From positions 1 through 64,000 of IMG/VR virus record IMGVR_UViG_3300009163_000025: a stretch of 64,000 nucleotides of DNA. One strand, 5' to 3'. Made by a program: the position numbers and the translations under genes. Under the pieces are notes generated by a model. That model did no database searches. It worked only from the letters and a program-made list of their open reading frames with translations, and was not told where the DNA came from. Positions 14,839 to 52,217 of the stretch are shown here, one piece after another (within the stretch, counting starts at the first letter, position 1; each line of letters begins with the position of its first letter). Origin of the DNA: a virus.

Positions 14839-15856
14839 TTTGTTGAATCCTCATTTCACTTTCGCACATATCAAACACCAAGTCTTTGAATGTATACTCT
14901 GGTGTCCAACCCAAAACAGTTTTTGCTTTAGTGCAATCACCAAAGATCGTTGGCACTTCTGCTGGACGATAAAAGTCTTTGTTCACTTTGATGATAGTCT
15001 TACCCGTAGACTTATTGATGCCGACTTCATCTAAACCTTCACCACGCCATTCAATTTCAAATCCAAGATATGTCGCAACATCATTACAGAAGTCTTTTAC
15101 TGAATGCTCTTCACCACTAGAGATTGCATAGTCATCTGGTTTGTCTTGTTGCAGAATCAACCACATCGCACGAACGTAATCTTTAGCATGTCCCCAATCA
15201 CGCCTTGCTGTTAGATTTCCTAGTTCTAGAATATCTTGCAAACCGAGATGAGTGCGAATCATACCTAGTACAATTTTACGTGTAACAAATTCAGGACCTC
15301 TACGTGGGCTTTCGTGATTAAACAAAATACCATTGCATGAGAATAGATTAAAACTTTCACGATAGTTTACTGTGATCCAATAACCATACATCTTAGCAAC
15401 AGCATAAGGTGAACGTGGATAGAATGGAGTGTTTTCTGTTTGTGGAGTTTCTTTTACCTTACCATACAACTCACTAGTTGATGCTTGATAAAATTTGACT
15501 TGCTTTTCTTTGGCCAATCGTTTGACTGCTTCAAGCAATTTGAGTACGCCAAGAGCATTAACATCACCCGTATATGTTGGGCAATCATAACTTACGCTAA
15601 CGTGGCTTTGTGCGCCTAAGTTATAAACTTCATCTGGTCGCACTTTGATAACAATACTTTCAAGATTAGCCGCATCTGTTAGATCGCTATAGTGAAATGT
15701 AATTCGATGTTTGATATGGTTGATGTTTGCAGTATTGTTTCCTGTACTTGATCGGCGTACAAGACCATGCACATCATAACCTTTTTCAAGTAGAAGTTCT
15801 GCTAGGTAACTTCCATCTTGTCCTGTAATACCCGTAATCAAGGCAGTTTTTTGCAT
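14825..15856 (-). CDS. gmd: GDP-mannose 4,6-dehydratase
   Basis: ITGITGQDGSYLAE, YQASTSELYG, PRSPYAVAK, RDWGHAKDYV. Confidence 0.97.
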   Translation of the reverse strand: MQKTALITGITGQDGSYLAELLLEKGYDVHGLVRRSSTGNNTANINHIKHRITFHYSDLTDAANLESIVIKVRPDEVYNLGAQSHVSVSYDCPTYTGDVNALGVLKLLEAVKRLAKEKQVKFYQASTSELYGKVKETPQTENTPFYPRSPYAVAKMYGYWITVNYRESFNLFSCNGILFNHESPRRGPEFVTRKIVLGMIRTHLGLQDILELGNLTARRDWGHAKDYVRAMWLILQQDKPDDYAISSGEEHSVKDFCNDVATYLGFEIEWRGEGLDEVGINKSTGKTIIKVNKDFYRPAEVPTIFGDCTKAKTVLGWTPEYTFKDLVFDMCESEMRIQQNGNT

Positions 15857-15884
15857 ATTGTATTCATCCTATTTTATTGTGAAA

Positions 15885-16215
15885 TTAGTGACAGGTTATT
15901 CTGTTACGAGGAAACCTGTCGAAACCCTAAGCCGAGTTTAGGCGGCTAATGCGAAACGTGAGTCGTTTGCGTTTACTTTTTTTGCTTGATTAACGGTCAT
16001 CGCCTACCGTGCTGTCCACTCTGTTACTTGTTGCCCTGTCGAATCTAGATCAAGCCCATCATAAAAAGAATAAAAAAAACCAAAATAATAATACTCACTA
16101 CCCCGCAGGTATATTGGTATTTTACTTCAGGATCCATATAGTCTCCTTATGGTGGACTTGGGGGGATTCGCACCCCCGTCCAGGTCACTTTTCTCTTTGC
16201 TTCATACAGCAATAA
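15885..16215 (-). ncRNA. ssrA: Two-piece (circularly permuted) tmRNA, tag ANDSRFALAA
   Basis: Acceptor piece ends ...GGGGGTGCGAATCCCCCCAAGTCCACCA at 16150; coding piece starts GGGCTTGATCTAGATTCGAC at 16057; acceptor stem GGGCTTG/CAAGTCC has the G3:U70 Ala identity pair; tag ORF 15970-15938; outer ends approximate. Confidence 0.92.
16045..16137 (-). CDS. 30-aa single-TM peptide in the tmRNA intervening segment
   Basis: AGGAG SD 5 nt before ATG; MDPEVKYQYTCGVVSIIILVFFILFMMGLI*. Confidence 0.55.
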   Translation of the reverse strand: MDPEVKYQYTCGVVSIIILVFFILFMMGLI

Positions 16216-16216
16216 C

Positions 16217-16420
16217 TTACTCTCTACCCCATTTGATTTTCAACCAAATTCGTTCATGTATATAGTAGTCAACACTTAGCATAATATGCAATGCAGTTGC
16301 AAATCCAGTAGCATTACCTATATCACCGGTAAACAAATAAGTCCAAAAAATTGTAAACGCCCATGCAGTAACACGATATGTTAACATTCTCACTACGGTT
16401 CTTTTCTTTGTTTCAATCAT
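16217..16420 (-). CDS. DUF2061-like small membrane protein
   Basis: ET.KRT......YR....YY.HERIW.KI.WG pattern. Confidence 0.75.
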   Translation of the reverse strand: MIETKKRTVVRMLTYRVTAWAFTIFWTYLFTGDIGNATGFATALHIMLSVDYYIHERIWLKIKWGRE

Positions 16421-28238: not shown

Positions 28239-28967
28239 TTACCTCATAATGTTAATTTGATGATTTACAAGTTTCCTTCCTAAGAAAGGAAGACTCATTA
28301 CCAACTGATCAAACTCAAGTGTACTATACTTCGGTTGAAATGTCAAGTTATCTTCGGTAAACAAAAACACTAGAACTTCTTTTGATTGTTGTTTTGTTAT
28401 TGGCAATAATGCTTCGAACTTTTGATTTGCCGTTGGCAAAGTAAATTCTTTGTTTGGCAATTTAACAGAGTACTGGTGTATTAGTCGGTATTCATTGCCT
28501 GTCATGTTGAATACCGCAAGTTTACCAGCACGATTGATAACAGCATTGAATGCAAATCTATCACCATGTTTGTACTCTGTTTTGCCGTCTACTTTGAATT
28601 GAATTTGATTTGTGACCTTTTCTACATCTGCAACAATGTCAACAAAACAAATTGTTTGCTTATGTTGTGGTGCTGTGTAACGATTCTTGCTAATGACGTT
28701 TTTGACTTCGCCGCTTGTCTCCGAAAAGTATTTTCGATACGATGTACAATACTCATCCTTACAAATTTCGTTTGTTGAATGTTCAATTAGTTCACCAACA
28801 AATTTCTCAATAGCATCTTTCTTAGCACGTTCTTCTGCTAGACTACATGCAATGTTTTCTGCTGTTTCTGGACCGAAACGATACTCACCATTTCCTACGA
28901 CTGTCGCATTTGCCGAGAGTCCTCCGAGTATTGCAAGTATTGCGAGGGAAAGTTTTGCCTTAACCAT
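28239..28967 (-). CDS. Secreted hypothetical protein
   Basis: Signal peptide, several Cys; in operon with lipoproteins. Confidence 0.6.
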   Translation of the reverse strand: MVKAKLSLAILAILGGLSANATVVGNGEYRFGPETAENIACSLAEERAKKDAIEKFVGELIEHSTNEICKDEYCTSYRKYFSETSGEVKNVISKNRYTAPQHKQTICFVDIVADVEKVTNQIQFKVDGKTEYKHGDRFAFNAVINRAGKLAVFNMTGNEYRLIHQYSVKLPNKEFTLPTANQKFEALLPITKQQSKEVLVFLFTEDNLTFQPKYSTLEFDQLVMSLPFLGRKLVNHQINIMR

Positions 28968-29072
28968 GATATAGCATCCTGTTCATTATCAAAATATGGA
29001 CCAATAATTCGAGTGTTTTGCATCCAAAAATAAGTATAGGTTGCCATTTGTGCATCCCTATACTTTATCAAT

Positions 29073-29543
29073 TCAAGCAATTTTCAATCCTTTAAGTCTA
29101 TCTGCGGCATATGATGCGGCAAACGCTTTTGGTTTCACCATAGGAATTACATTACATGTTCCACGAATGTAACCAATTGCTTCTTGAAGAACACATGAAG
29201 AACCAAACATTTCATTCGGATTAATATCCAAATGAACTTCAACTTCTCTATCTTCTAATACGTCAAAAAGTTTCAAGTATAACTCCGAAAGTTTATATGC
29301 TTCGTTCATTAAACGATAGCGTGGTTTACTAACTTTTTTATCAAAATCTTTTTCACGTATCACTTCACCAAAAAGTTTACATCCATGTTTACCATCGATA
29401 TGAACAACGATTGCAAGTATGTAGTCTGCGTACCAAACACCATCAACACGCAATCTTTCAGAATCGCACCCCAAATAGATTTTAGTCTCAGGCGTCTGTT
29501 TTTCAATGAACTCTTTTACTTCTTCTAAATTTAATTTTGCCAC
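29073..29543 (-). CDS. RNase H-like YkuK family protein
   Basis: IYLGCDS, EVHLDIN, KP.AFAASYAAD. Confidence 0.8.
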   Translation of the reverse strand: MAKLNLEEVKEFIEKQTPETKIYLGCDSERLRVDGVWYADYILAIVVHIDGKHGCKLFGEVIREKDFDKKVSKPRYRLMNEAYKLSELYLKLFDVLEDREVEVHLDINPNEMFGSSCVLQEAIGYIRGTCNVIPMVKPKAFAASYAADRLKGLKIA

Positions 29544-29603
29544 AATATTTCCTAAGTCATGACTACATTATTGCACAATAACAATTGCCTGTCAAGTTAT
29601 TTA

Positions 29604-29677
29604 TGGCATCCCGCCAGGGATTCGAACCCCGATCAACGGTTTTGGAGACCGCTATGTTGCCTTTACACTAGCGAGAT
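29604..29677 (-). tRNA. tRNA-Trp(CCA)
   Basis: Cloverleaf, loop CTCCAAA, encoded CCA. Confidence 0.9.
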
Positions 29678-29679
29678 AT

Positions 29680-29754
29680 TGGTGGGCTTAAGTGGATTCG
29701 AACCACTACCTTATCAATTATGAGTTGACGGCACTACCTTTATGCTATAAGCCC
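29680..29754 (-). tRNA. tRNA-Ile2(CAT), probably lysidine-modified
   Basis: Loop CTCATAA, GGGCTTA acceptor with paired 1:72; Ile2 versus Met assignment is inferred. Confidence 0.75.
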
Positions 29755-29757
29755 AAT

Positions 29758-29842
29758 TGGTATGAGTAGCCGGAATCGAACCGGCATGCCTTGCGGCGAG
29801 AGATTTTAAGTCTCTTGCGTCTACCTATTTCGCCATACTCAC
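29758..29842 (-). tRNA. tRNA-Leu(TAA)
   Basis: Loop CTTAAAA, long variable arm, CCA. Confidence 0.9.
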
Positions 29843-31111
29843 TCAACTACCATCATTTGCGATTTGAAGCCTCAACTCTTGCAGTTGGTGTAAGGTAATT
29901 TTATCGAAAAATCCATAGCCGAAGTGTGTATCAGAATCCATGATTTTAAAATTCTTTTCGTTGAAAACAAAACTTAGCGATCTGTAGTAATTTCTTGAGT
30001 CACCAAAACGCATTGCATGAATGAAATCATGAAACGCATCACTTTCTTCTAAGATTTTTTGCGCTGGTTCTTTAATTCCATTCCAGAATGGTGTATCGTG
30101 AATACTGCCATCACGATACATGTATGCGATAACAGTAGCAACATTATTAATTTCAGCAGATATTACCGCATTTGCTCCTTCTTTTGATCCACCATATGCA
30201 ATATACCCAACAATTGCACGATTGATTGTGTCATATAAGTGTAGTGAATTTGCAAATAGCGGTTCGAAAAATACAGCACGATTACCATTCTTAAAAATTC
30301 TTTTACCAATAATTTGTTTAGCACGATATGAATTGAATTTGTATTCAATATTTTGCAACTCTTCTACAGGAACACCAATCTCTTTAGAGAAATTTTGAAG
30401 TGCTTCTTCTTTCGTTGTTATTGTATCATTAAAAAGATATCCATAACTTTTTCTATTGGTTAATGGCACACCAAACATCCATCCATCCGGTGTCGCTCTA
30501 TGTAATGTATATTTCCATCCTTCTTTATCATCCTCTTGAACATTATGAACAAGGCAATGATTGACTGTTTGAACGGGCATCAAACTGTAATCTTCATATG
30601 ATTTTGGAAACCCACGACAATCTACAACAAAATCGTAATTGTGTTCTTCACCATCGATAACCATAGTGACTTTATCATCATGCTCCGTCATTGAATCGAC
30701 TGTACCAACTACTTCTTTAAATTTTTCACGCCAAACTTTTTTGAGTCTAGGTATTGCAAATTCTCTAAGTTTAAATGTATTAAAATGAATCGCCGCACTA
30801 CCATTAATTAATGGATTGTGAAAGTCGTGTTCACGCCAATTTTCAAATTTTGTTGTTAGTTTTAATGTTGCGTCTAATTCTTCTAAATTATCATACAAAT
30901 TAAATCGTGTACCATATTCAAGCGCAGTAATGAATGTTGGATTTGTACTCTCACCAATTCCTACAATAGGAATAGATGGATCATGAATTGACACAACCTC
31001 AAATTCAAGCCCATCAAGCCAAGCAAGAAAAAAAGATAATGACTGAATGCCAGCACTACCAGTTCCAATAACTGCAACTTTTTTCTTTATGATTTCTTTT
31101 ACACTATGCAT
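29843..31111 (-). CDS. Flavin-dependent tryptophan-halogenase-family protein
   Basis: GTGSAG, VGIGEST.P, AT.K, VDCRGF, GWMFGVP, FFEPL. Confidence 0.8.
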   Translation of the reverse strand: MHSVKEIIKKKVAVIGTGSAGIQSLSFFLAWLDGLEFEVVSIHDPSIPIVGIGESTNPTFITALEYGTRFNLYDNLEELDATLKLTTKFENWREHDFHNPLINGSAAIHFNTFKLREFAIPRLKKVWREKFKEVVGTVDSMTEHDDKVTMVIDGEEHNYDFVVDCRGFPKSYEDYSLMPVQTVNHCLVHNVQEDDKEGWKYTLHRATPDGWMFGVPLTNRKSYGYLFNDTITTKEEALQNFSKEIGVPVEELQNIEYKFNSYRAKQIIGKRIFKNGNRAVFFEPLFANSLHLYDTINRAIVGYIAYGGSKEGANAVISAEINNVATVIAYMYRDGSIHDTPFWNGIKEPAQKILEESDAFHDFIHAMRFGDSRNYYRSLSFVFNEKNFKIMDSDTHFGYGFFDKITLHQLQELRLQIANDGS

Positions 31112-31136
31112 TATTTCTCCTTAACGAATTTTATAA

Positions 31137-31742
31137 TTATTCAACTTTTTTCATCGTATTAAAACTAATAATCACTCTATTCTTAGTTTGATTTTGTTCA
31201 TAGTTTGACCCATGCTTTAACCAACTAGGAAAGAATAAAATATCTCCCGCACCAACTTTAATAGTCCAAAGATCGACAGTATACATTGTTTTGATTTTAG
31301 TTGGTGTTAAACATTTTATTTGATTCAATGGCGCATCAAATGTTATACCTGTACTATCCTCATCAACATTAATGTATATAGCGGCTGATGCCCAACTATC
31401 TGGATGATAATGTTGTTTTAAAACGCTACCTTCATGCTGTATTGCATACCATGAATTTGTGATAGCCAATCGATACATTCCAAATTTTTCTGCGTATTCA
31501 TTAATGCCATTTTCAAGAAATTCATACAGCCCATGACAACTTGGAATATTTTTTTCTAATTCTTGAATGAATAATGTTTCTTCAAGATAACTTGTCCTAA
31601 CGTTTCCAGTTAAAGTGTCGTGTGAAGTGCCGTGTGGTTTTGCCATTATATATTCAAATATATCTTTTCGGCGCTGTTCTTCAATGACACCTCTGTGCCA
31701 TCTAACCAAAGTTGGGAATATATCAAAGTCTATTGTTTCCAT
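31137..31742 (-). CDS. 2OG-Fe(II) oxygenase (TIGR02466-like)
   Basis: HxH..S..SA..Y, FFPSWL.H, R..ISFN. Confidence 0.85.
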   Translation of the reverse strand: METIDFDIFPTLVRWHRGVIEEQRRKDIFEYIMAKPHGTSHDTLTGNVRTSYLEETLFIQELEKNIPSCHGLYEFLENGINEYAEKFGMYRLAITNSWYAIQHEGSVLKQHYHPDSWASAAIYINVDEDSTGITFDAPLNQIKCLTPTKIKTMYTVDLWTIKVGAGDILFFPSWLKHGSNYEQNQTKNRVIISFNTMKKVE

Positions 31743-31743
31743 A

Positions 31744-32265
31744 TCAAACGAAAAATGTAAATGTTAATCGGGAATCTTCAATTGTAGTTCCAAAAAATCT
31801 TTGTGGACGATGAAGTATATTCTTATATAGCACAAGTCGGTTAAATTTATTTTCAACTACAATTTCTTTACCATTTGAAACCAAAATCGTTCCACTATTA
31901 GGTTCAGGTGTTTTATTTAGATAGATCACACCAGCACAAGAACATTGATCTGTGTGCCACCAATGCCGAACTGGTATATCATAATTAGCAAATTCTGGAA
32001 TGATTGCAAGATATGCACTTGCCTTTGTGTAATCGAATTTAACTGACTTTGATACTATTTGTTTCAATGTATCAATTTGAGTCTTACTGATATCCGTAGA
32101 ACGATATCCACGCCACATTGCAGGCGGCCGTGAAGGTTCATTGGAGTCAATTTGAACTCCATCAATAATCCTGTCTTCAAATGTATAATAAGTTGCAATC
32201 CTTGAAAGTGCGACTAATTGATCTGGATCAGATAAAATGTTATCAACTACAATATAATCATTCAT
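31744..32265 (-). CDS. DUF6445-like 2OG-Fe(II) oxygenase-fold protein
   Basis: HTD, AGVIYL....GT, FNRLVLY...H, RLT.TFF. Confidence 0.65.
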   Translation of the reverse strand: MNDYIVVDNILSDPDQLVALSRIATYYTFEDRIIDGVQIDSNEPSRPPAMWRGYRSTDISKTQIDTLKQIVSKSVKFDYTKASAYLAIIPEFANYDIPVRHWWHTDQCSCAGVIYLNKTPEPNSGTILVSNGKEIVVENKFNRLVLYKNILHRPQRFFGTTIEDSRLTFTFFV

Positions 32266-32270
32266 AATTA

Positions 32271-32345
32271 TGGCCCGACCTGAGGGAATCGAACCCCCAT
32301 AATGACTTTAGAAGAATCATGTCCTATCCGTTGAACGAAGGTCGG
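32271..32345 (-). tRNA. tRNA-Arg(TCT)
   Basis: Loop CTTCTAA, CCA. Confidence 0.85.
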
Positions 32346-32352
32346 AATAAAT

Positions 32353-32426
32353 TGGAGCGGGATATGAGAATCGAACTCATAACTGAAGTTTGGAAGACTG
32401 CCGTTTTACCACTAAACTAATCCCGC
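32353..32426 (-). tRNA. tRNA-Gly(TCC)
   Basis: Loop CTTCCAA, U73, CCA. Confidence 0.9.
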
Positions 32427-32429
32427 AAT

Positions 32430-32504
32430 TGGTGGAGATGGAGAGAATCGAACTCTCAATTTCTGGTTGCAAACCAGATGTGTTCCCATTAGCACTACAC
32501 CCCC
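32430..32504 (-). tRNA. tRNA-Ala(TGC)
   Basis: Loop TTTGCAA, G3:U70. Confidence 0.9.
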
Positions 32505-33086
32505 TTAAATATCTTTCTTAACGTAATGACAATTAATTGCAATACTCAATCTATCTTCATCACTACGATTTTCATTTACATAATGCATTAGCCAACTAGG
32601 AAAAATCAAAAGTGTTCCTGCGTTAGGTGCTACAACAAATATACTGCTGTTGAATTCATTATAACTACTAATAATTTCGTCGGAATAAGAATGCAATGCG
32701 GCCGCATTTGGTGTTGTAAATTCTATAGTTCCAAATTCTTTTTTTCCTATTGGATAATAAACCGCACTAAAAAAAGAAGTTGGATGTGTATGAGGTTTGC
32801 TTGTTACATAACAATTATTTATTGTACACCAAGCCTCTCTAATTTTTAAAAAATATTCATCACTAAATCCATATCGTTTGTATACTTCATTAAATTTATT
32901 TTCAACATGATCGAATAAGTCTTTGATAACACCACTAACATTTTCTTGTCTTATCCAAGATTGATGATCCGACATACGATTTTTTTCTGTGATAAGATTT
33001 TTACGACAAAAATTAACAATTGACTCATTGTCCAATGATAATTGATCCACCGCTAAAAATGTTGTAAATATGTTCGTATATTGCAT
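32505..33086 (-). CDS. 2OG-Fe(II) oxygenase (TIGR02466-like)
   Basis: HTHP.S.FSAVYY, IFPSWL.H.V, RLSIA.N. Confidence 0.85.
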   Translation of the reverse strand: MQYTNIFTTFLAVDQLSLDNESIVNFCRKNLITEKNRMSDHQSWIRQENVSGVIKDLFDHVENKFNEVYKRYGFSDEYFLKIREAWCTINNCYVTSKPHTHPTSFFSAVYYPIGKKEFGTIEFTTPNAAALHSYSDEIISSYNEFNSSIFVVAPNAGTLLIFPSWLMHYVNENRSDEDRLSIAINCHYVKKDI

Positions 33087-33106
33087 AAATTCCCCACAAA
33101 ATAAAT

Positions 33107-33180
33107 TGGTCTCGATGGCAAGAATCGAACTTGCGCCTCATGGTCCCAAACCACGAATGATACCATTTCACCACACCGAG
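33107..33180 (-). tRNA. tRNA-Pro(TGG)
   Basis: Loop TTTGGGA, C1:G72, CCA. Confidence 0.9.
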
Positions 33181-33213
33181 TTTTCTCTATTATACATCAA
33201 TCTGCTATCAATG

Positions 33214-33957
33214 TCAAAGCAAATTGATTATATTCTTTACCAGACTGTCTACGTCATTTCTTGTTTTGCCGCCAAGAACAACAATTGCAAATCTGTCTTC
33301 TCTTTTATGTACAATCATCACAACGCATTTACCAGCAAGATTTGTTGTTCCGGTCTTGGACATTTCAATCACATCAAATTTAGATAACAAATTTTTATTT
33401 GTGCTATTGATTTCAATCAATCGCTCTCTATTCTTTTTATCATACACATGAAGATCATATTCACGCAATGATGCAATTTCTTTTATCTTCTCAATGTTAT
33501 ACGCATAATTCAGTAGTGTAACTAACTCAACTGCATTACTCACATTCTTTGGACTCAATCCAGATGGGTCATCAAACTTTGTATTAACCATTCCTAACAT
33601 TTCTGCTTTACGATTCATTTGATATACGAACCATGCTTTACCATGATTGCTATCTGCTAATGCATCGGCTGCCTTGTTGTCACTTTTAACTAATAACAAA
33701 TTCAACAATTCTTCTCTAGTAAATTTTTTGCTAGAGAAAAACATTCCCCTATATGTAACTTTCTCATCCAATGGCAGTCCACTCTCCATGATAACAATAG
33801 CAGTCATCAATTTCGTAATACTTGCAATTGGTTTTACATCATAAATTTCAGAGTCAACTATTGGAATATCTTTTGTTATGTTATGTGCGTAAACTGTTAT
33901 TGCATTTGCATTCATACACATAAAAACTGTGAGTATGCAATATAGTATTTTTTTCAT
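33214..33957 (-). CDS. D-alanyl-D-alanine peptidase, peptidase S11 (PBP5/PBP7-like)
   Basis: SxxK (ASITKLMT), SxN (SDN), KTG motifs; signal peptide. Confidence 0.9.
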   Translation of the reverse strand: MKKILYCILTVFMCMNANAITVYAHNITKDIPIVDSEIYDVKPIASITKLMTAIVIMESGLPLDEKVTYRGMFFSSKKFTREELLNLLLVKSDNKAADALADSNHGKAWFVYQMNRKAEMLGMVNTKFDDPSGLSPKNVSNAVELVTLLNYAYNIEKIKEIASLREYDLHVYDKKNRERLIEINSTNKNLLSKFDVIEMSKTGTTNLAGKCVVMIVHKREDRFAIVVLGGKTRNDVDSLVKNIINLL

Positions 33958-33967
33958 ATTTACTTTC

Positions 33968-34042
33968 TGGTACCTTGTGACAGGATCGAACTGCCGACCT
34001 TCTCCGTGTAAAGGAGTTACTCTACCGCTGAGTTAACAAGGC
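33968..34042 (-). tRNA. tRNA-Val(TAC)
   Basis: Loop TTTACAC, CCA. Confidence 0.9.
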
Positions 34043-34047
34043 GTTAT

Positions 34048-34121
34048 TGGTGCCCCTTGACAGAATCGAACTGCCGTAACCTGATTACAAAACAGGCGTA
34101 ATACCATTATACTAAAGGGGC
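34048..34121 (-). tRNA. tRNA-Thr(TGT)
   Basis: Loop TTTGTAA, CCA. Confidence 0.9.
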
Positions 34122-34140
34122 TCATACTTTATATATCTAT

Positions 34141-34214
34141 TGGCAGAGGGTACAAGAATCGAACTTGTGACAACGGAATCAAAATCCGTGGTTATACCAT
34201 TTAACTAACCCCCA
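34141..34214 (-). tRNA. tRNA-Gln(TTG)
   Basis: Loop TTTTGAT; U1:U72 mismatch; CCA. Confidence 0.88.
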
Positions 34215-34219
34215 ACATT

Positions 34220-34309
34220 TGGTGGAAGCGGTGAGATTCGAACTCACGGACCCTTTCGGATCGACAGTTTTCAAGACTGTTGCCATAAACCTGACTCGAC
34301 CACGCTTCC
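34220..34309 (-). tRNA. tRNA-Ser(TGA)
   Basis: Loop CTTGAAA, long variable arm. Confidence 0.9.
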
Positions 34310-34315
34310 ATTAAT

Positions 34316-34390
34316 TGGCACCCAATGAAGGAATCAAACCTCCAACTCCTCGTTCGTAGCAAGGTGTGATATTCATTTCACTAATCGGGT
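34316..34390 (-). tRNA. tRNA-Arg(ACG)
   Basis: Loop CTACGAA; variant T-loop TTTGATT. Confidence 0.85.
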
Positions 34391-34393
34391 AAT

Positions 34394-34476
34394 TGGTGCC
34401 CCAAGAGAGACTTGAACTCTCACGCACTAGGCACTGGCTTCTAAGACCAGCGTGTCTACCATTCCACCATCGGGGC
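34394..34476 (-). tRNA. tRNA-Leu(TAG)
   Basis: Loop CTTAGAA, long variable arm. Confidence 0.9.
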
Positions 34477-34484
34477 AATATACT

Positions 34485-34558
34485 TGGTACCCAGTAGAGG
34501 TATCGATCCTCTGATTAACGCTTATCAAGCGTTTGTTATACCATTTAACTAACCGGGC
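34485..34558 (-). tRNA. tRNA-Ile(GAT)
   Basis: Loop TTGATAA; T-loop ATCGATA. Confidence 0.85.
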
Positions 34559-34563
34559 ATATT

Positions 34564-34639
34564 TGGTACCGACTTCAGGTTACGATCCTGATTCTCTGGT
34601 TTTTCAAACCAGCGCAATGACCACACTTGCTCAATCGGC
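34564..34639 (-). tRNA. tRNA-Phe(GAA)
   Basis: Loop TTGAAAA; T-loop ATCGTAA; 5' end overlaps the stop of the upstream CDS. Confidence 0.82.
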
Positions 34640-35215
34640 AGAACCATTTCCGTTCTTAAATCCTACTACACCACCTTCTTCTTTGATGCGTTTGATAACG
34701 TCTTCAAAAAGAATTGGCGTGTAATCTGTTTGTTCTACACATACACAATAGTATCTTGGATCGGGAACTGGAACACCATACTTACCTACTGGTTGCATCA
34801 TCACTCTGTTAGAATGTAGATGCCCATGAATGTTCACACCGAATCTTCCAAGACTGTCTACGTGAATAGGAATGTGAGAAAGAATCATTCCGTTCATTAC
34901 ATGATAAGCACGTAACTCTCTAAAATATTTTCTATACTCATCATCACGAAAAATATCGTGATTACCACGAATTAAAACTTTGTCACCATTTAGCCTACTC
35001 ATAATGCCTAGACTTTTACGATTGATAACAACATCGCCTAGATGATAAACTTTATCGTTAGGGCGAACTCTATCATTCCAGCGCCTAACCATTTCTTCAT
35101 CCATCTCATCTGCATTATCCCATGGACGTAGTTTTGTCACACCATCATTACGCATGAATCTACACACACCAGTGTGACCAAAGTGTGTGTCACTAACTAA
35201 AAATACTGATGGCAT
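34631..35215 (-). CDS. Calcineurin-like phosphoesterase
   Basis: SDTHFGH, YHLGD, GNHD, SH.P, HGHLH. Confidence 0.9.
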   Translation of the reverse strand: MPSVFLVSDTHFGHTGVCRFMRNDGVTKLRPWDNADEMDEEMVRRWNDRVRPNDKVYHLGDVVINRKSLGIMSRLNGDKVLIRGNHDIFRDDEYRKYFRELRAYHVMNGMILSHIPIHVDSLGRFGVNIHGHLHSNRVMMQPVGKYGVPVPDPRYYCVCVEQTDYTPILFEDVIKRIKEEGGVVGFKNGNGSAD

Positions 35216-35229
35216 ATATTACTCCTTTG

Positions 35230-35304
35230 TGGGGTGTCTAATGAGGATCGAACTCATACGGAGGGAATCACAATCCCTAATGCTACCACTACATCATAGA
35301 CACC
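35230..35304 (-). tRNA. tRNA-His(GTG)
   Basis: Loop TTGTGAT, encoded G-1:C73. Confidence 0.9.
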
Positions 35305-35312
35305 ATAAAAAT

Positions 35313-35387
35313 TGGTAGGGGCACCGAGAATCGAACTCGGATTAATAGGTTAAAAGCCTACTACTTTAGCCGTTAAGTTATGCCCCC
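35313..35387 (-). tRNA. tRNA-Lys(TTT)
   Basis: Loop CTTTTAA, CCA. Confidence 0.9.
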
Positions 35388-35391
35388 ATAT

Positions 35392-35466
35392 TGGTGGTTC
35401 AGGTTGGATTCGAGCCAACGACCTACTCCGTATGAAGGAGTTGCACTACCGCTGTGCTACTGAACC
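35392..35466 (-). tRNA. tRNA-Met(CAT), elongator
   Basis: Loop TTCATAC, fully paired acceptor stem. Confidence 0.8.
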
Positions 35467-35469
35467 GAT

Positions 35470-35555
35470 TGGTGGAGAATCAGGGATTCGAACCCCGTAT
35501 ACCTTAAGGTGACAGATTTACAGTCTGCTGAAGTCGCCAATGCTTCTCATTCTCC
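35470..35555 (-). tRNA. tRNA-Tyr(GTA)
   Basis: Loop CTGTAAA, long variable arm. Confidence 0.9.
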
Positions 35556-35561
35556 GTTGTT

Positions 35562-35640
35562 TGGCTCCGAGTAAGAGAATCGAACTCTTCTAACCAGTGA
35601 TTAACAGTCACGCCCATGCACCTTGCTCGGGTTTCTCGGA
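35562..35640 (-). tRNA. tRNA-Asn(GTT)
   Basis: Loop CTGTTAA; enlarged D-arm. Confidence 0.85.
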
Positions 35641-35644
35641 ATAA

Positions 35645-35857
35645 ATGCTTTCTCTCTGCGGCGGTAATTATAGTACTAATGGACTCTGAGGACGTCTGTT
35701 TTACCAGACACTCATACCACGTACCCTCCACCCGCTCCCCGACCAGAGAAAACTCTCGTATTGCCAACGCTACTTTGGTAAGAGTAGTACCACACTTGAG
35801 TAACGAACTCACTTCACTTCCTGCGTGTCACAGTAGCCAGACGTTACTCCAGCGGGT
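35645..35857 (-). ncRNA. Unidentified ~210-nt structured RNA between tRNA-fMet and tRNA-Asn
   Basis: GC-rich, multiple nested and pseudoknot-type pairings; no credible ORF. Confidence 0.65.
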
Positions 35858-35858
35858 T

Positions 35859-35931
35859 TGGTTGCAGGTAGTGGTAACGCTCCACTCTCGCTATGGCTTA
35901 TGAGACCATGCGGGTCCTTGACCTACCTGCG
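35859..35931 (-). tRNA. Initiator-type tRNA-fMet(CAT), atypical
   Basis: Loop CTCATAA, C1:A72 mismatch, A73-CCA; short D-arm, T-loop AGCGTTA. Confidence 0.75.
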
Positions 35932-35934
35932 ATA

Positions 35935-36390
35935 TTACTTTATAACTTGTAGATACTCGTAATTAACTGTATCTTCGTTTTCTCTAAACACTATTGCACC
36001 ATTACGTGTATGAAACCTTTTGGCTAAATCAGTCTTTGGTGATAGTGTCACAAATCGTTTAATGTCTGGATTGTTTTCTTTGATAGATTTTACCGCTTCA
36101 AATATCAATGTGCGACCTGCTCCTGGTGCGTAACTCCATATCGTATAGAATACAGCAACATCTGGCGTATCACAAATCTCAAACAACTCAGATTCTTTTG
36201 TTGGAATCATGTTTTGATAACTAACACATGTCATTGCTTTCACTTCATCTTGTTCATTGCGGAACACAAAGATATCTCTGTTCTTTCCGATTCTATCAAC
36301 GTGAGGAATGTTTGGGCGAACTGGATCGTCAATCAAAAATTCAAAAAACTTATCAGTCAATTCTTTTATAGTACGTATCATATTATTCAT
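35935..36390 (-). CDS. Hypothetical protein resembling the GNAT-fold malonyl-CoA decarboxylase C-terminal domain
   Basis: AVFYTIWS, GAGR.LI, KRFVTLSP motifs. Confidence 0.5.
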   Translation of the reverse strand: MNNMIRTIKELTDKFFEFLIDDPVRPNIPHVDRIGKNRDIFVFRNEQDEVKAMTCVSYQNMIPTKESELFEICDTPDVAVFYTIWSYAPGAGRTLIFEAVKSIKENNPDIKRFVTLSPKTDLAKRFHTRNGAIVFRENEDTVNYEYLQVIK

Positions 36391-36414
36391 TTCTTAAAAT
36401 TATAAATCGTCATA

Positions 36415-36422
36415 TATTTATA
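36415..36422 (-). promoter_or_regulatory. T4-type late promoter inside tRNA array
   Basis: TATAAATA on the minus strand, 24 nt upstream of the 36390 ATG. Confidence 0.55.
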
Positions 36423-36429
36423 TAAAATC

Positions 36430-36505
36430 TGGCGGTCTTAGGGGGTAACGATCCCCACTCTTATGGCGTGACAAGCCATCGTGCGTCCATGAACACTTTA
36501 AGACC
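36430..36505 (-). tRNA. tRNA-Asp(GTC)
   Basis: Loop TTGTCAC, G73, CCA. Confidence 0.88.
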
Positions 36506-36510
36506 AATCT

Positions 36511-36598
36511 TGGCGGAGAGTATCAGATTCGAACTGATGCATCGCTTTCGCAATGACGGTTTAGCAAACCGCTGGTTTAACCACTCACCCAACTCTCC
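36511..36598 (-). tRNA. tRNA-Ser(GCT)
   Basis: Loop TTGCTAA, long variable arm. Confidence 0.9.
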
Positions 36599-36604
36599 TT
36601 TGTT

Positions 36605-36681
36605 TGGAATAGGTGACAGGACTCGAACCTGCATGAAACGGATTTGCAATCCGTAGCCTAACCATTCGGCGACACACCTAC
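36605..36681 (-). tRNA. tRNA-Cys(GCA)
   Basis: Loop TTGCAAA, U73. Confidence 0.9.
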
Positions 36682-36692
36682 GTATCTAATTC

Positions 36693-36820
36693 TACCATTT
36701 GTTTTGCTGACGCACTATTTGCAAAGCCTCAACGGAATTGGTGGCCACACTACCGTTTATTGACAGAGTTACTCAAGGTTGACGTTTACCTCATGGCTTA
36801 CGTCAGCAAAACAAATGGTA
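36693..36820 (-). ncRNA. Unidentified ~125-nt RNA closed by a perfect 20-bp inverted repeat
   Basis: 36693-36712 is the exact reverse complement of 36801-36820; internal hairpins. Confidence 0.6.
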
Positions 36821-36890
36821 CTCGGTAGGGGAATCGAACCCCTCTTTCCGGCGTGAAAGGCCAGCGTCCTAACCGATAGACGAACCGAGC
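36816..36890 (-). tRNA. tRNA-Glu(TTC)
   Basis: Loop CTTTCAC, CCA. Confidence 0.9.
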
Positions 36891-36905
36891 ATTTGACAGG
36901 CAAAT

Positions 36906-36936
36906 TGTTAAAGAACATTTGATTGATTTCTCAATC
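36906..36936 (-). promoter_or_regulatory. rrn-like antitermination signal boxB-boxA
   Basis: Hairpin GATTGA-GAAA-TCAATC (36936-36921), then TGTTCTTTAACA (36917-36906); rrn boxA is TGCTCTTTAACA. Confidence 0.7.
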
Positions 36937-36945
36937 TATGAATAG

Positions 36946-37008
36946 AGTATAACACGATACGCTATCCATGTCAACAATATTTTTTGGTACTGTTGTTTTT
37001 TGTAAACA
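36946..37008 (-). promoter_or_regulatory. Sigma70 promoter of tRNA array with upstream box
   Basis: TTGACA(36974-36969)-17-TATACT(36951-36946); degenerate box 36991-37008. Confidence 0.8.
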
Positions 37009-37009
37009 C

Positions 37010-37044
37010 AAATAAAAATCCCCTAGTTTTTTAGGCTAGGGGGC
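37010..37044 (-). terminator. Intrinsic terminator (attenuator)
   Basis: CCCCTAG-loop-CTAGGGG followed by ATTTTTATTT. Confidence 0.85.
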
Positions 37045-37072
37045 TTTTGTTTGCATTTAAGGTTTTTGGTCC

Positions 37073-37186
37073 TCAGGTGCAAGCCCCCATTCCAGGTGTG
37101 TGGCAATCGGCAATCTCAAAGCGAGAATTACCCTGCCAACTTGATGGCATATAATTCGTCTTTGACTGTACCGATAATAGTTTCAT
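37073..37186 (-). CDS. 37-aa leader peptide containing all 20 amino acids (putative attenuator leader)
   Basis: MKLLSVQSKTNYMPSSWQGNSRFEIADCHTPGMGACT*; TAATG overlap with the mazG-like stop; 3' codons complementary to the terminator 5' arm. Confidence 0.75.
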   Translation of the reverse strand: MKLLSVQSKTNYMPSSWQGNSRFEIADCHTPGMGACT

Positions 37187-37464
37187 TAAATTTTCTCTTT
37201 AGTAAAAATGTCTGACCACGTTTGTAATTTCTTACGTTTGTTTTGTGAAGCCTGTTCTACTTCATCAATGTTGATGATTTTATTTTCAATCATCAATTGA
37301 ATCATGCAAAACAAATCTCCAACTTCTTCTGTTAACCTTTGCCGATTGGTGCGATCCAAATGAACTGCATCAATGCCAAATCGAAAAACTTTGCTAATCG
37401 CTTGTGTCACTTCCGCACATTCTTCCTGTGCAATCAGCAATACTTCTTTTTCGACCTCATTCAT
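37186..37464 (-). CDS. MazG-like nucleotide pyrophosphohydrolase
   Basis: EECAEV.QAISK ... EEVGDL motifs; AAGGA SD before ATG 37464. Confidence 0.8.
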   Translation of the reverse strand: MNEVEKEVLLIAQEECAEVTQAISKVFRFGIDAVHLDRTNRQRLTEEVGDLFCMIQLMIENKIINIDEVEQASQNKRKKLQTWSDIFTKEKI

Positions 37465-37484
37465 TATATATCCTTTTTCTTTCA

Positions 37485-37513
37485 ATTATACACTTGTTCG
37501 AGCAAATTGTCAA
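37485..37513 (-). promoter_or_regulatory. Consensus sigma70 promoter for mazG-leader unit
   Basis: TTGACA(37513-37508)-17-TATAAT(37490-37485). Confidence 0.8.
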
Positions 37514-38396
37514 GAACTTTTTTTGTTTCTTTGCTTGTCGCACCATAAATCTTAAATTGATCTGCTAGTGACATTACGCCTTGAACTAACATTTCTTTCG
37601 GCTCGCCTTTATTGTATTCATACATCACTCGCTTATTCAAGAATGACGCAACCTTTTCAATTACGATTCTTGGAAACTCATCTGTTTTTAAATTCCATTG
37701 ATTAGCACTCAAATCAACACTAATGTTTGTTCGAATCGCAATATTTGGATGCGGTTTATTGATATTCATTCTACAAATTTCCTTACAAGAAAACGTTTTA
37801 CATCATAACACTTTTTAAAATATACTGAAGATCGTTTGTTATTAATTGACAACTTCACTTCAATATTCTTCGGTGATTTCACAACAACTGCACCATAACA
37901 ATTTTTGTTCAACCCAAATGGTATCACATAACCATCACCTCTGTCAAGTTTTTTCTTTGCATATCCGTTTGCGCCTTTGATCTTATCCAAAGCACCAAAA
38001 CGAATTGTGTCCAAAACTTCTACGGCAATAGATTGTCTCGGACCCATGCCTTCAATATACATATTGTTCCTTGTGCTTTGGTTCTCTCTTACGTTTGTCT
38101 TCAACCACACGCATACGATACTTAGGGCTACGCAAGTCCTTTGCTACCATATTACGTGGCTTTGATCTACAAACTTTCACCGTAATCACCATAGTCCTCA
38201 TTTGTTCCCATTCCTGCTGAAGCCATAGCGGAATCAAAATCTCCGTCCATGCTTTCATTATACTCTACATCCATAAAACTTGCAACAAAATCATCTACCA
38301 ATTCTACTGGTATACTAAGCATTGTTGCAATCGTGAATTCATTGTATCCTTGTGTATACAATTGTTCAATCTCCATAGCCAACTCGCTCATCCTAC

Positions 38397-38741
38397 TCAT
38401 GCTAGTTCCTTTTGTTTATCCAAAACTTCCTGATACGTCATTGTGGGTTCTTTGCTAGTGATAGCACCATCAAACTGTAACTGAGACCTCTCAAACCATG
38501 AAAGGTAATCATCACTTTCCATAGACCAATCAGTCATGTACTCGCTGGAATAATCTGTATCTGTTTCAATGCCAGTCAAGGTGAACTTCACAAACTCATT
38601 ATAGTCTATGTTAAGCGGAACGTCAAGTATCTTATACTCGGAACCGCCTTTTGCTTTCCAATACTGAGGACACTCACCCACACCATCCCAATCATGTGCG
38701 CCATAATTTTCGTGGTACTGAGTGCGGATAACTATCATCAT
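38397..38741 (-). CDS. Conserved phage hypothetical protein
   Basis: TQY.ENYGAHDWDG.GECPQYWK.KGG. Confidence 0.7.
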   Translation of the reverse strand: MMIVIRTQYHENYGAHDWDGVGECPQYWKAKGGSEYKILDVPLNIDYNEFVKFTLTGIETDTDYSSEYMTDWSMESDDYLSWFERSQLQFDGAITSKEPTMTYQEVLDKQKELA

Positions 38742-45004: not shown

Positions 45005-45419
45005 GATTTTTCCTTTAAAAAAGTTTATCTGCAAGTGCCGCCGCATTCCATGCTGAAAAGAATATATTCAGCCATCCCATTTTATTGTTTCCATTTTCAA
45101 AGTCAATTGTTGCAAACTTCCAACACATTACCATAAACAATACATTGAGTACAATAAACATATTCATGATTTCATTCCTTTAATCATAGAACCGACTAGG
45201 AATTGTAAATACGCTAATGCTAAAATAGTTTCCAAGTCAAAGGAAATTGAAGTTAAAAATACAGTATTGATTGCCCATATCGTAATCGCAGAGGATATAA
45301 TAACGGCAACAAACATGCCTGCTAAAAATACCAAAATGGCAGTTAGTGTCATTTCTTTAGTGTTCATAAAATCTCCATTCATATTTAACATCTTAACATA
45401 CTTGAATTGGCATGTCAAG

Positions 45420-50073: not shown

Positions 50074-50745
50074 TCAATCCCAAAGTGCTTGATAGTATTT
50101 TCCGAACAAACGAAATCCGTTCTTGATTCGTTCCTCAACAATTGCCATGCCGTCATAGTCACATTTGTATGTGTGTTTGGGACCTTCTTCCAATCTAAAC
50201 ATTTTTGGCTTACCATTTTCATCCCACTCACAAGCAACCGACTTATGATCAAATTCACCTGACCGATATCCTTCTTCCCACTCTTTATTGATGTGGTGAT
50301 CGAATGCAAAAATCATTTCATCCATGACCCAATCCCAACGCTTGAAATGGTTGTCATCGGTGTCCCATTCATTTTCTTTTGCTGGCGCTGAAGTAGACTT
50401 CAATTCTTCTGGCACATCTTCATCATCAACAAAAGGCGCACCATGCTTTTTATCTTTCAACTGTTTCAACATAGGCAAAGCAATTTGACCAAGAGTATGA
50501 TCCATAGACCAAGTATCCCAATAGTCAATCTTCACATAGTCAATCTTAGGGTGAATTACATCCAAGACTTTTGCAATCACTTTGCAGATAGGGTCTAAAA
50601 AATTAACCCACTTCTCGTATGGTGCGTTAGGCTTGTCTTCGAGATTATAGAACACATCATTAGTTTTTTCCCAAAAGCAAACAAACTCTAAGATGTGATA
50701 TGGACTTAGCCAGTGATTACGATATCCGCTGATGTAGACTTTCAT
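50074..50745 (-). CDS. Conserved phage hypothetical protein
   Basis: WDTWSMDHTL..I..PML.QL, RWDWV.DEMIFAF, GF.LFGKYY..LWD. Confidence 0.75.
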   Translation of the reverse strand: MKVYISGYRNHWLSPYHILEFVCFWEKTNDVFYNLEDKPNAPYEKWVNFLDPICKVIAKVLDVIHPKIDYVKIDYWDTWSMDHTLGQIALPMLKQLKDKKHGAPFVDDEDVPEELKSTSAPAKENEWDTDDNHFKRWDWVMDEMIFAFDHHINKEWEEGYRSGEFDHKSVACEWDENGKPKMFRLEEGPKHTYKCDYDGMAIVEERIKNGFRLFGKYYQALWD

Positions 50746-52217
50746 ATTGGTTGGTATTCGTTGATTTGTTTAAGGAATTCTTTATGATCTAATGCTTGAG
50801 TTGCAGTCAAAGCATCAATTATTTCTCTATACTCTTGTGGTGATGGACGAACATTCTCAAAGCCCTTAATATTGATAGGCTTTTCAAATATTTCAAGTCC
50901 ATAACCAACTTGAAGATAACTATACAAAGCAAAGTATACATTGATACGCATGTTTGGAATGTTATAGGGACGTAGATTTCCATCTTTAAGAAATGGAATC
51001 AAATTTCTAATATATTCTGGTGGAGGATTTTTCTCCACAAACTCAGTCCAAAATGGGCTATCTTTTCGTTTTGTGAGATAGTGAAAGTATACAAACCCCA
51101 TAGTGTCATCCATGTTGTTTCTTGCAATATCGTTAAACACTTTGATACTATTCTCATCGGGATTGTCAATCTCATTAATGAATTGACGGAAAGTATCTAA
51201 CTCACCGACAGACAAAAAGATAGACGTTGATTCTAATGGTTCAATAAAACTAGAAGACAATCCAACTGCAAGACAGTTTTTGATCCAATAGTTTTCAAAG
51301 CGACCTGGATTCAGATCAATAACTTTACGCACCTTGATTTCTTGCCCTAAGTATTCTTCAACTTCAGCCTTTGCTTGTTCTACTGTGATATAATCGGAAT
51401 CGAAAACATAACCTGCACCTGTACGATGTTGCAGAGGAATTTGCCACATCCATCCATACTTCATTGCAATTGCAGAAGTGTATGGTTTGAGTTCAGTCTC
51501 TTGAATCCAAAATGGAATCGCTTTCTTCATTGGCAGATATTTTGAATACGATACCCATTCGTCTTTATACACTCCACCAATCAACAGTCTAGCCATGCCA
51601 GAACAATCAAAAACAAAGTCTACGGGAACACTACGCCCATCTTCAAGATTCAATGCTTTAATATACTCACGTTCATCTTGTGTTGCGTGAGTATACACAC
51701 CTTCAACAATTTCAATACCACGTTCAACACCTTTTTCGGATAAATATTTTGAAAATTCATTCGTATCGAAATGAATTGCCCATTCCGTTCTATGCAAATC
51801 AATTTTATTATCGTATGCTAGATGAATTTGATAATTGTAATCTTCTAAACTCAAACCTTCAGCAATACATTTCTTCAAAAAGAAATCTTGCCCGTCTACA
51901 CCAAATGTAGGTTGAACTGAGAAGTCTGTGACTTTATCACAAAATCCATGCATGTAACGTTTCTCATCGCCATTCCAATTTTCAAAATTAATTCCACTCT
52001 TAATCGTGCCTTTAGTGCTTCGAATCAAATCGATGATATCAATATTAATTTGCGAAAGAAACGCAACGATGTTTGGTGTTGTCGCTTCACCAACACCAAT
52101 GATACCAATTTCTTTGCTTTGAACGACAGTAATTTTATCATTTGGAAAAACTGTATGTGCATACAATGCAGTCAACCAACCAGCGGTACCGCCACCCAAT
52201 ACTACGATATTTCTCAT
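50742..52217 (-). CDS. Tryptophan 7-halogenase-family protein
   Basis: GGGTAGW, IGVGEATTP, GTIKSGINF, FDCSG, GWMWQIP, FIEPLESTSI. Confidence 0.9.
   Translation of the reverse strand: MRNIVVLGGGTAGWLTALYAHTVFPNDKITVVQSKEIGIIGVGEATTPNIVAFLSQINIDIIDLIRSTKGTIKSGINFENWNGDEKRYMHGFCDKVTDFSVQPTFGVDGQDFFLKKCIAEGLSLEDYNYQIHLAYDNKIDLHRTEWAIHFDTNEFSKYLSEKGVERGIEIVEGVYTHATQDEREYIKALNLEDGRSVPVDFVFDCSGMARLLIGGVYKDEWVSYSKYLPMKKAIPFWIQETELKPYTSAIAMKYGWMWQIPLQHRTGAGYVFDSDYITVEQAKAEVEEYLGQEIKVRKVIDLNPGRFENYWIKNCLAVGLSSSFIEPLESTSIFLSVGELDTFRQFINEIDNPDENSIKVFNDIARNNMDDTMGFVYFHYLTKRKDSPFWTEFVEKNPPPEYIRNLIPFLKDGNLRPYNIPNMRINVYFALYSYLQVGYGLEIFEKPINIKGFENVRPSPQEYREIIDALTATQALDHKEFLKQINEYQPI

Follow-up and report, generated by a model that had tools for sequence, protein, structure and literature searches.

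An rRNA-operon-type boxA at the head of a phage tRNA array and a predicted helix between the array's leader and trailer

The DNA considered here is the stretch of 64,000 nucleotides (nt) at positions 1 to 64,000 of the IMG/VR virus record IMGVR_UViG_3300009163_000025, referred to below as the window, which forms the first 64 kb of an 88,348-bp phage contig (37% G+C). It holds a long array of transfer RNA (tRNA) genes, and our subject is the short leader in front of that array, which an earlier reading made from the letters alone (the sequence-only reading) had described as a boxB/boxA antitermination leader in the style of a ribosomal RNA (rRNA) operon, or rrn. The elements named there are all present as described, in the order promoter, GAAA hairpin, boxA and tRNA-Glu, and it needed only to be stated that all of them lie on the minus strand. 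Listed in the direction of transcription, the features of the locus are as follows.

37485-37186, minus strand: mazG-like open reading frame (ORF), upstream of the leader
37019..37043, minus strand: intrinsic terminator with an 11-pair stem and a T run, readable on both strands, which closes the mazG/leader-peptide unit
36946..36974, minus strand: sigma-70-type promoter (TTGACA, 17 nt, TG-n-TATACT), 11/12 matches plus the extended -10 TG
36921..36936, minus strand: boxB-like hairpin GATTGA-GAAA-TCAATC (6 bp, GAAA loop), ending 3 nt before boxA (AAA, 36920-36918)
36902..36917, minus strand: rrn-type boxA TGTTCTTTAACAATTT, with the functional 11-mer GTTCTTTAACA at 36916-36906
36893..36910, minus strand: 5' (leader) strand of the predicted helix, overlapping boxA positions 7-11 and ending 2 nt before tRNA-Glu
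36890, minus strand: start of tRNA-Glu, the first gene of the array (ARAGORN)
29604..36890, minus strand: tRNA array, 23 tRNA genes and 8 to 9 interspersed ORFs (ARAGORN, ORF calls)
29579..29595, minus strand: 3' (trailer) strand of the predicted helix, starting 8 nt past the 3' end of the last tRNA (Trp)

The 11-mer GTTCTTTAACA is a perfect fit to GYTCTTTAANA, the experimentally derived functional consensus for boxA (Baniulyte et al. 2017). Counted from the 12-mer TGTTCTTTAACA, tRNA-Glu starts 15 nt downstream, which confirms the distance given in the sequence-only reading, and 11 nt, GCCTGTCAAAT, lie between the 16-mer TGTTCTTTAACAATTT and the tRNA gene. The motif TGYTCTTTAACAA is found once in the window, with 0.01 occurrences expected and 1/100 shuffles containing any match; copies with up to two mismatches number 10 in the window against 6.2 expected, the exact copy alone standing out. 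GYTCTTTAANA has a single match on both strands of the whole 88,348-bp contig, and a second boxA of the spacer type is therefore absent. If transcription starts at about 36939, 7 nt past the -10 element, as the promoter sequence predicts, boxA would fall at approximately +23 to +35, and it is unpaired in both the minimum free energy and the centroid folds of the leader. The NusB–NusE complex recognises about 8 nt of single-stranded boxA (Stagno et al. 2011; Burmann et al.), and in rrn operons boxA is necessary and sufficient for the antitermination complex, boxB being dispensable (Warner et al. 2023).

The likeness to bacterial rrn leaders extends beyond the consensus. The leader of Escherichia coli rrnB P2 has the order promoter, hairpin, 2 nt, TGCTCTTTAACAATTT and then boxC, and the phage boxA is identical to it at 15/16 bases, while locus L003, the closest relative of the phage (its mazG is 97% identical), shows the E. 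coli form, TGC, without change. Searching bacterial genomes for TGYTCTTTAACAATTTGC gave 100 stretches, 80 of which were read; in seven of the 80 the 5' end of a 16S gene lies 72-246 nt downstream, in beta- and gammaproteobacteria, and a further four of the 80 have the same leader interrupted by the contig end. The motif with an AATTTGC tail thus occurs in the rrn leaders of beta- and gammaproteobacteria, and one metagenome-assembled genome has both the TGC and the TGT form of boxA in separate rrn copies. In a complete Neptunicella genome the 16-mer is present eight times, as four same-strand pairs about 2.1 kb apart and nowhere else (reversed control 0), which is the pattern of rrn leader plus spacer. 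Counting the 13-mer class-wide in 101 genomes was of no help, the motif giving 45 matches and its reversed control 36; we suspect that many of these 101 assemblies may be without rrn operons.

Relatives of the locus were collected through the mazG-like protein, which has 314 relatives in IMG/VR, and 80 loci (549,095 bp) were kept. A tRNA array stands just after mazG in 16/80 of these loci. In 15 of these arrays the motif is found 15-35 nt ahead of the first tRNA, which is tRNA-Glu in the window and L003 and tRNA-Gln in the others. Across all 80 loci the consensus has 24 matches, 21 of them no more than 60 nt upstream of a same-strand tRNA. When 14 leaders are aligned, the block G-TC-TTAACAATTTG is invariant and the promoter spacer and hairpin vary. 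The terminator at 37019-37043 is kept in the 14 aligned relatives and the promoter in 10/14; the other four have lost about 70 nt with promoter and hairpin, and retain boxA directly after the terminator. The variants of boxA seen in relatives (C at position 2, A or T at position 10, and one T5C) are all within the consensus or equal to the Aquifex form judged to be tolerated (Stagno et al. 2011). The alignment thus indicates that boxA has been conserved independently of its flanking sequence. Five more distant whole records (mazG 64-68% identical) gave 16 matches, seven of which stand 16-20 nt before tRNA-Gln or tRNA-Glu; some of the copies in these records adjoin a promoter without a hairpin, and some follow a terminator without a promoter.

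Relatives also possess a second unit inside the array, about 1.1 kb in, composed of promoter, GATTGA-GAAA-TCAATC hairpin, boxA and tRNA-Glu. Judged by sequence, this internal unit is the homologue of the unit at the head of the array in the window, and in the window and L003 the unit has therefore presumably moved to the array head. We also observed that L046/G115 differs from other relatives in having the two hairpin types swapped between the head (tRNA-Gln) and internal (tRNA-Glu) promoter units, and that in G113 and G111 the tail after boxA is common to both units of one genome; promoter units seem to exchange or co-evolve within a genome.

The promoter of the leader has its -35 element TTGACA at 36974-36969, the TG at 36954-36953 and its -10 element TATACT at 36951-36946. 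The region holds no overall excess of promoter-like sites (28, where 36.6 would be expected), and among the four best such sites on the minus strand it is the leader promoter only that is followed by boxA. The boxB-like hairpin has an energy of -6.0 kcal/mol and z = -4.2 in a 35-nt mononucleotide-shuffle test, and the 49-nt leader as a whole folds in an ordinary way (z = -0.91, with 38/200 dinucleotide shuffles folding at least as well), so that by itself the hairpin is weak evidence. It is present in many phage leaders and appears to be optional, because relatives carry a different hairpin sequence at the same place or none at all.

The second element that recalls an rRNA operon joins the two ends of the array. 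Leader positions 36910-36893 pair with trailer positions 29595-29579 in a helix of 17 bp (6 + 11) with one bulged U and an energy of -20 to -21.5 kcal/mol, which was reached by 0/30 and 1/20 shuffles; the 18 nt after the boxA core, taken against the site at the array end, give -20.0 kcal/mol (0/30 shuffles). The whole 49-nt leader against the array is not significant (6/30 shuffles equal), significance being found only for the part after the boxA core. An equivalent helix with co-varying sequences is present in 11 other phage records, which have seven other helix sequences between them, and in 9/12 records (the window and these 11) the perfect run was reached by no more than 2/500 shuffles. 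The helix of G116, the record of the L003 contig, is the same as that of the window. There are 16 perfect pairs in G005, G117 and G119, 16 pairs in G111 and in G114, 19 in G112, and 21 perfect pairs in G113, where the helix extends over boxA positions 4-11; the unrelated jumbo phages G001 and G002 have 13 pairs each, at 14.1 kb and 4 kb from the leader. In G115 the pairing is kept through a U-G wobble where G005 has C-G; this record fails the longest-run test (184/500 shuffles) because the wobble and a bulge split the helix, and it passes the energy test (0/20 shuffles). Either a tRNA immediately precedes the trailer or the trailer is close to the array end, and 0-3 tRNAs follow it. As predicted from these sequences, leader and trailer would enclose the stable-RNA genes in a helix, as in rrn. 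According to the current model for rrn, the leader is tethered to the polymerase through boxA, which allows its strand to pair with the trailer as the latter emerges (Warner et al. 2023). Another inverted repeat, I19 (31174-31191 with 36931-36948), was rejected as a candidate: many chance pairs are comparable to it, and part of it lies upstream of the predicted start.

The array accounts for 7,740 transcribed nt, divided into 1,779 nt of tRNA (23%), 5,356 nt of ORF (69%) and 605 nt of spacer (8%). Among the 132 ORFs, Pfam finds no Nus, N or Rho-related family, and any action of boxA must therefore use host factors. Within the array, the 134-nt spacer between tRNA-Glu and tRNA-Cys (36682-36815, minus strand) has a structure closed by a perfect stem of 17-20 bp (36693-36712 with 36801-36820; -39.4 kcal/mol, z = -3.4, 1/200 shuffles equal) that matches no Rfam family, and its predicted fold may be that of a small stable RNA like those of the T4 and T5 tRNA regions.

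Leaders of this kind are also found outside the family of the source phage. A scan of viral contigs for GYTCTTTAACAATTTG returned at least 116 stretches, and in 11 of the 80 that were read a tRNA lies 6-101 nt downstream. These tRNA-proximal matches include members of the family, together with phages of 310 kb and 359 kb and two short contigs that share nothing with the family beyond tRNAs. Many other viral matches are promoter–hairpin–boxA leaders ahead of ORFs, and in other phages, too, early or ORF-containing units seem to begin with rrn-style leaders (L214, L194, L224, L241, L242, L197). One 108-kb viral contig (G004, approximately 19.8-21.2 kb; L318, L323, L328) has three consecutive promoter–boxA units within 1.4 kb, with an identical GCTGA-GAAA-TCAGC hairpin just before boxA in two of the three and the third unit 271 nt before tRNA-Leu. 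In a separate group of viral contigs of 9-47 kb (L184-L186, L193, L212, L222, L238), one or two copies of GCTCTTTAACAATTTG are followed by shared sequence, and to judge from this arrangement they may be nut-type sites of temperate phages.

Pfam identifies a T4-type replication and late-transcription core on the source contig (gp32, gp59, the gp33 coactivator, RNase H, RegA, gp44/62, gp43, UvsX and gp41), and the closest cultured phages are cyanomyophages, with a gp43 identity of about 52%; on this gene content the source phage is classified as an uncultured T4-like phage of lytic type. BLAST of the region and of a 45-nt leader query against isolated phages gave only tRNA-Glu or chance-level matches and no close cultured relative, and an Rfam scan (E <= 1, 28500-38500) found tRNAs only, with no family over the leader or over the conserved stretch upstream of it. 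The phage carries its own transfer-messenger RNA (tmRNA; 15847-16242, minus strand; tag ANDSRFALAA), which by its scores is of the betaproteobacterial two-piece type (RF01850, 116 bits, threshold 84; RF04321, 132 bits), and the host is therefore probably a betaproteobacterium. DNA of this phage has been seen repeatedly in freshwater and lake metagenomes. Contigs from metatranscriptomes (four runs, with small shares) are mostly short pieces of relatives over tRNA-Glu; two exact 151-nt pieces lie over the mazG/leader-peptide region, and these contigs are silent on leader transcription, starts and ends.

Taken together, these elements suggest, with a probability that we would put at roughly two in three, that the stretch leads a phage tRNA operon whose layout follows that of a bacterial pre-rRNA operon and which uses Nus factors. 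With a boxA at the head of the array and a matching stem at its end, the phage probably makes its tRNAs by means of the transcription machinery that its host uses for rRNA. The core of the sequence-only reading, an rrn-style boxA leader on the tRNA array, is upheld in that the motif fits the consensus, matches rrnB P2 at 15/16 bases, is unique, is predicted to be single-stranded and is conserved; the conservation in related phages that it had named as a check is found, the motif being retained at array heads even where promoter and hairpin are gone. Its single transcription unit of about 7 kb gains support from the co-varying leader–trailer helix across the array, and its remark that read-through from upstream would also pass the site is borne out by the four relatives that keep boxA after the upstream terminator without promoter or hairpin.

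The following course of events could be envisaged. Host sigma-70 polymerase would start at the leader promoter or read through from the upstream attenuator, and would transcribe the short optional hairpin and then the rrn-type boxA. Host NusB–NusE(S10) would bind boxA and, with NusA, NusG and SuhB, form an antitermination and chaperone complex of the rrn type, and the polymerase modified in this way would cross the 7.3-kb array of tRNAs and ORFs without premature termination, even if the ORFs are poorly translated. The RNA after boxA, including the 3' half of boxA itself, would then pair with the trailer 8 nt past the last tRNA, in the manner of rRNA-precursor helices. This stem probably marks the ends of the precursor as a processing stem of the RNase III type, and its overlap with boxA may also serve to unload the Nus factors at the end of the array, although this last role is speculation. 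The benefit to the phage may be protection from polarity, or effects on speed or RNA chaperoning, rather than relief from one specific Rho site.

Antitermination by boxA is textbook knowledge for rRNA operons and lambdoid phages, and a comparison with these systems shows what is shared. As in the E. coli rrn leader, a hairpin, a gap of 2-3 nt and boxA come just after a sigma-70 promoter; as in rrn, a leader strand downstream of boxA has its pairing partner beyond the stable-RNA genes, in the trailer (Warner et al. 2023); and relatives have, about 1.1 kb inside the array, a second boxA that recalls the spacer boxA of rrn, the window having a single boxA. Unlike rrn, the operon is phage-borne and encloses 23 tRNAs and protein-coding ORFs instead of rRNAs, the leader is without boxC, and the helix begins inside boxA and not downstream of it. 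The lambdoid nut sites, boxA plus boxB with protein N, share the boxA core, and use a phage boxA RNA to recruit host NusB/NusE, as is proposed for the present leader; among the viral contigs found with the 16-mer there are also groups of 40-47 kb that have one or two copies and may be nut-type. Here, by contrast, the hairpin precedes boxA and is not conserved, the phage is of the lytic T4-like kind, and the target is a stable-RNA array. No N-like or antiterminator family was found among the 132 ORFs, a result to be read with the contig covering about half the genome and with small arginine-rich proteins able to escape Pfam.

Outside rRNA operons, boxA has been reported in 5' untranslated regions (UTRs), namely that of suhB and approximately 400 predicted cases (Baniulyte et al. 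2017). These share the consensus GYTCTTTAANA with the phage leader, but lie no more than 50 nt from a start codon and repress translation or promote Rho termination, whereas the next gene in the phage is a tRNA; the survey itself states that non-coding RNAs were outside its scope. The tRNA regions of T4 and T5 resemble the present array in having tRNA clusters with small ORFs and stable RNAs and host-type promoters, and differ in that a GYTCTTTAANA match is missing from the head of the tRNA region in T4 and T5, and likewise in Serratia phage CHI14 and Vibrio phage PG07. In the T5 record NC_005859 the sequence GCTCTTTAATA does occur at 45177-45187 (minus strand), about 27 nt upstream of the annotated start of the exonuclease gene T5.087; this is probably a chance match, because T5 has five matches against one in the reversed control.

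The absence of the element from these four phages, which clearly shows that tRNA arrays can work without boxA, is one of several points that weigh against an rrn-like operon. In 4/12 of the internal tRNA-Glu units of relatives the 3' half of the hairpin and boxA have been lost and the promoter kept, so boxA is dispensable at internal promoters. The window itself has a perfect-consensus internal promoter (TTGACA, 17 nt, TATAAT; 33217-33189, minus strand) that ends 9 nt before tRNA-Pro, leaving no room for a leader or boxA in between and having none, and the distal tRNAs need therefore not rely on the boxA leader alone. The transcribed array outside the tRNAs has no C-rich, G-poor window resembling a Rho utilisation (rut) site, so that resistance to Rho is one possible benefit only and the need for it is not evident from composition; this result neither points to a special Rho problem nor argues strongly against one. 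It has also been reported that boxA can favour Rho-dependent termination in some contexts (Baniulyte et al. 2017). A boxC resembling UCUGUGUGGG is absent from the 11 nt between boxA and tRNA-Glu, where, unlike in E. coli and other bacterial leaders, there is no GTGTGGG. The boxB-like hairpin is not conserved, and in rrn it is also dispensable. As to the helix, its statistics in the window are moderate, with a longest perfect run of 11 that 15/500 shuffles reach; the trailer arm overlaps a promoter-like TTGACA site (29595-29567) for the next ORF; and in most records the duplex energies of sense and antisense strands fit an RNA helix and a DNA inverted repeat alike, an advantage of more than 1 kcal/mol falling to the sense strand in 4/12 records and to the antisense strand in 2/12. 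Finally, the host group is indicated only by the betaproteobacterial-type tmRNA.

Other explanations of the same stretch can be considered. The block might be kept only as one strand of the long-range helix, or as a site for RNase III or RNase E, without any role for Nus factors and with an incidental likeness to boxA. From position 7 or 8 onward the motif does belong to the co-varying helix, which in G113 reaches over boxA positions 4-11, and the spacing between motif and first tRNA is tightly held at 16-24 nt. We nevertheless regard this as rather unlikely, given that the 5' half, GYTCTTT, lies outside the helix in most records and is invariant in 34/34 tRNA-proximal instances (an invariance fixed by the search pattern), that the arms of the helix vary freely among phages where the boxA part is constant, that internal tRNA-Glu modules with a tail of 6-7 nt, and hence with no helix strand, still have the motif, and that the identical 16-mer is the rrn boxA of proteobacteria. 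A boxA of opposite sign, which would promote Rho termination and attenuate the tRNAs as in suhB, or which would act as a decoy when RNase P releases a leader that titrates NusB/NusE from host rrn, could call upon the stimulation of Rho-dependent termination mentioned above, upon the expected cutting of the leader just 15 nt past boxA at the 5' end of tRNA-Glu, and upon a 5' hairpin that could stabilise the fragment. The known repressive cases, however, act through a nearby ribosome-binding site, and here a tRNA follows, with neither ribosome-binding site nor ORF; the helix with a distant trailer implies that the leader remains with the transcribing complex, and a brake at every array head across lineages is less economical than a signal for read-through, all of which makes a negative role quite improbable.

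The duplex energies bear on the possibility that the two arms are DNA-level inverted repeats bounding a mobile or recombining tRNA cassette and form no RNA helix. The arms enclose the whole array in the window, G116, G005, G117, G119 and G115, the content and order of the array differ strongly among relatives, and most of the helices are perfectly Watson–Crick, with sense and antisense less than 1 kcal/mol apart in 6/12 records and antisense better in two. This is, in our view, a very improbable account: one to three tRNAs lie beyond the trailer in G113, G111, G112, G114, G001 and G002, the leader arm always adjoins or overlaps boxA, G115 retains its U-G wobble in place of the C-G of G005, and Pfam finds no transposase or integrase among the 132 ORFs, although the sense energy is clearly better only in G115 (-25.5 against -18.9) and G001 (-22.3 against -17.1). 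We give almost no credence to the motif being a promoter element in DNA, such as a middle promoter with a T4 MotA box, or a functionless passenger of a duplicated promoter cassette. Promoter–hairpin–boxA units have clearly been duplicated and swapped between array positions, and TGCT/TGTT...TTTA resembles the T4 MotA box; yet boxA persists where the promoter is deleted, it is constant where the neighbouring hairpin and spacer differ, and in tRNA-Glu modules with 6-8 nt between motif and tRNA a start 30 nt downstream would be inside the tRNA.

Two candidates were rejected, a MotA-dependent middle promoter and capture from a host rrn spacer. The C-terminal domain of MotA (PF09158) is absent from G000, G005 (complete) and G003, with a T4 control scoring 7e-71. 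Capture of boxA and tRNA-Glu from a host rrn spacer would not give the natural order, the spacer boxA of E. coli rrn following the tRNA and not preceding it.

A bolder form of the rrn-like reading is possible but doubtful. The leader would here be the front half of a self-limiting, pre-rRNA-like device for the stable-RNA arrays of many unrelated phages, in which boxA loads the host Nus factors, the leader stays on the polymerase across 7.3 kb even after RNase P has cut at tRNA-Glu, and pairing with the trailer strips off NusB/NusE, ends antitermination at the array end and makes a stem of the RNase III type. If such a device were true, the boxA copy would match the host group of each phage and might serve as a marker for host prediction.

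Full-text searches of papers open without subscription found none in which boxA or antitermination is connected with the tRNA arrays of phages; the terms met once only, in a polymerase chain reaction primer, BOXA1R. As far as those searches go, the novelty lies in where a canonical boxA is found, namely at the tRNA arrays of lytic phages, and in an rRNA-like enclosing helix that starts inside boxA. Should the rrn-like reading be correct, large phages would copy the logic of the pre-rRNA operon (promoter, boxA and enclosing helix) in order to obtain tRNAs from host polymerase, and their tRNA supply would be robust while translation fails. It would provide a testable account of how long, partly untranslated phage operons escape Rho, and a natural case of a boxA that is sequestered by pairing once the end of an operon is reached. 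The elements of the leader are short and portable, and a host-type boxA would be a sequence marker that could help in assigning uncultured phages to hosts.

Some further features of the region can be added. A 37-codon ORF (37076-37186, minus strand) overlaps the mazG stop (TAATG) and is followed by the strong terminator at 37019-37043; its product, MKLLSVQSKTNYMPSSWQGNSRFEIADCHTPGMGACT, has all 20 amino acids, and the stretch is conserved in relatives. The genes interleaved with the tRNAs (29843-33957 and 50742-52217, both minus strand) include two encoding tryptophan-halogenase-like proteins and two encoding 2-oxoglutarate-Fe(II) oxygenases, as well as genes for a D-Ala-D-Ala carboxypeptidase-like protein and a metallophosphoesterase.

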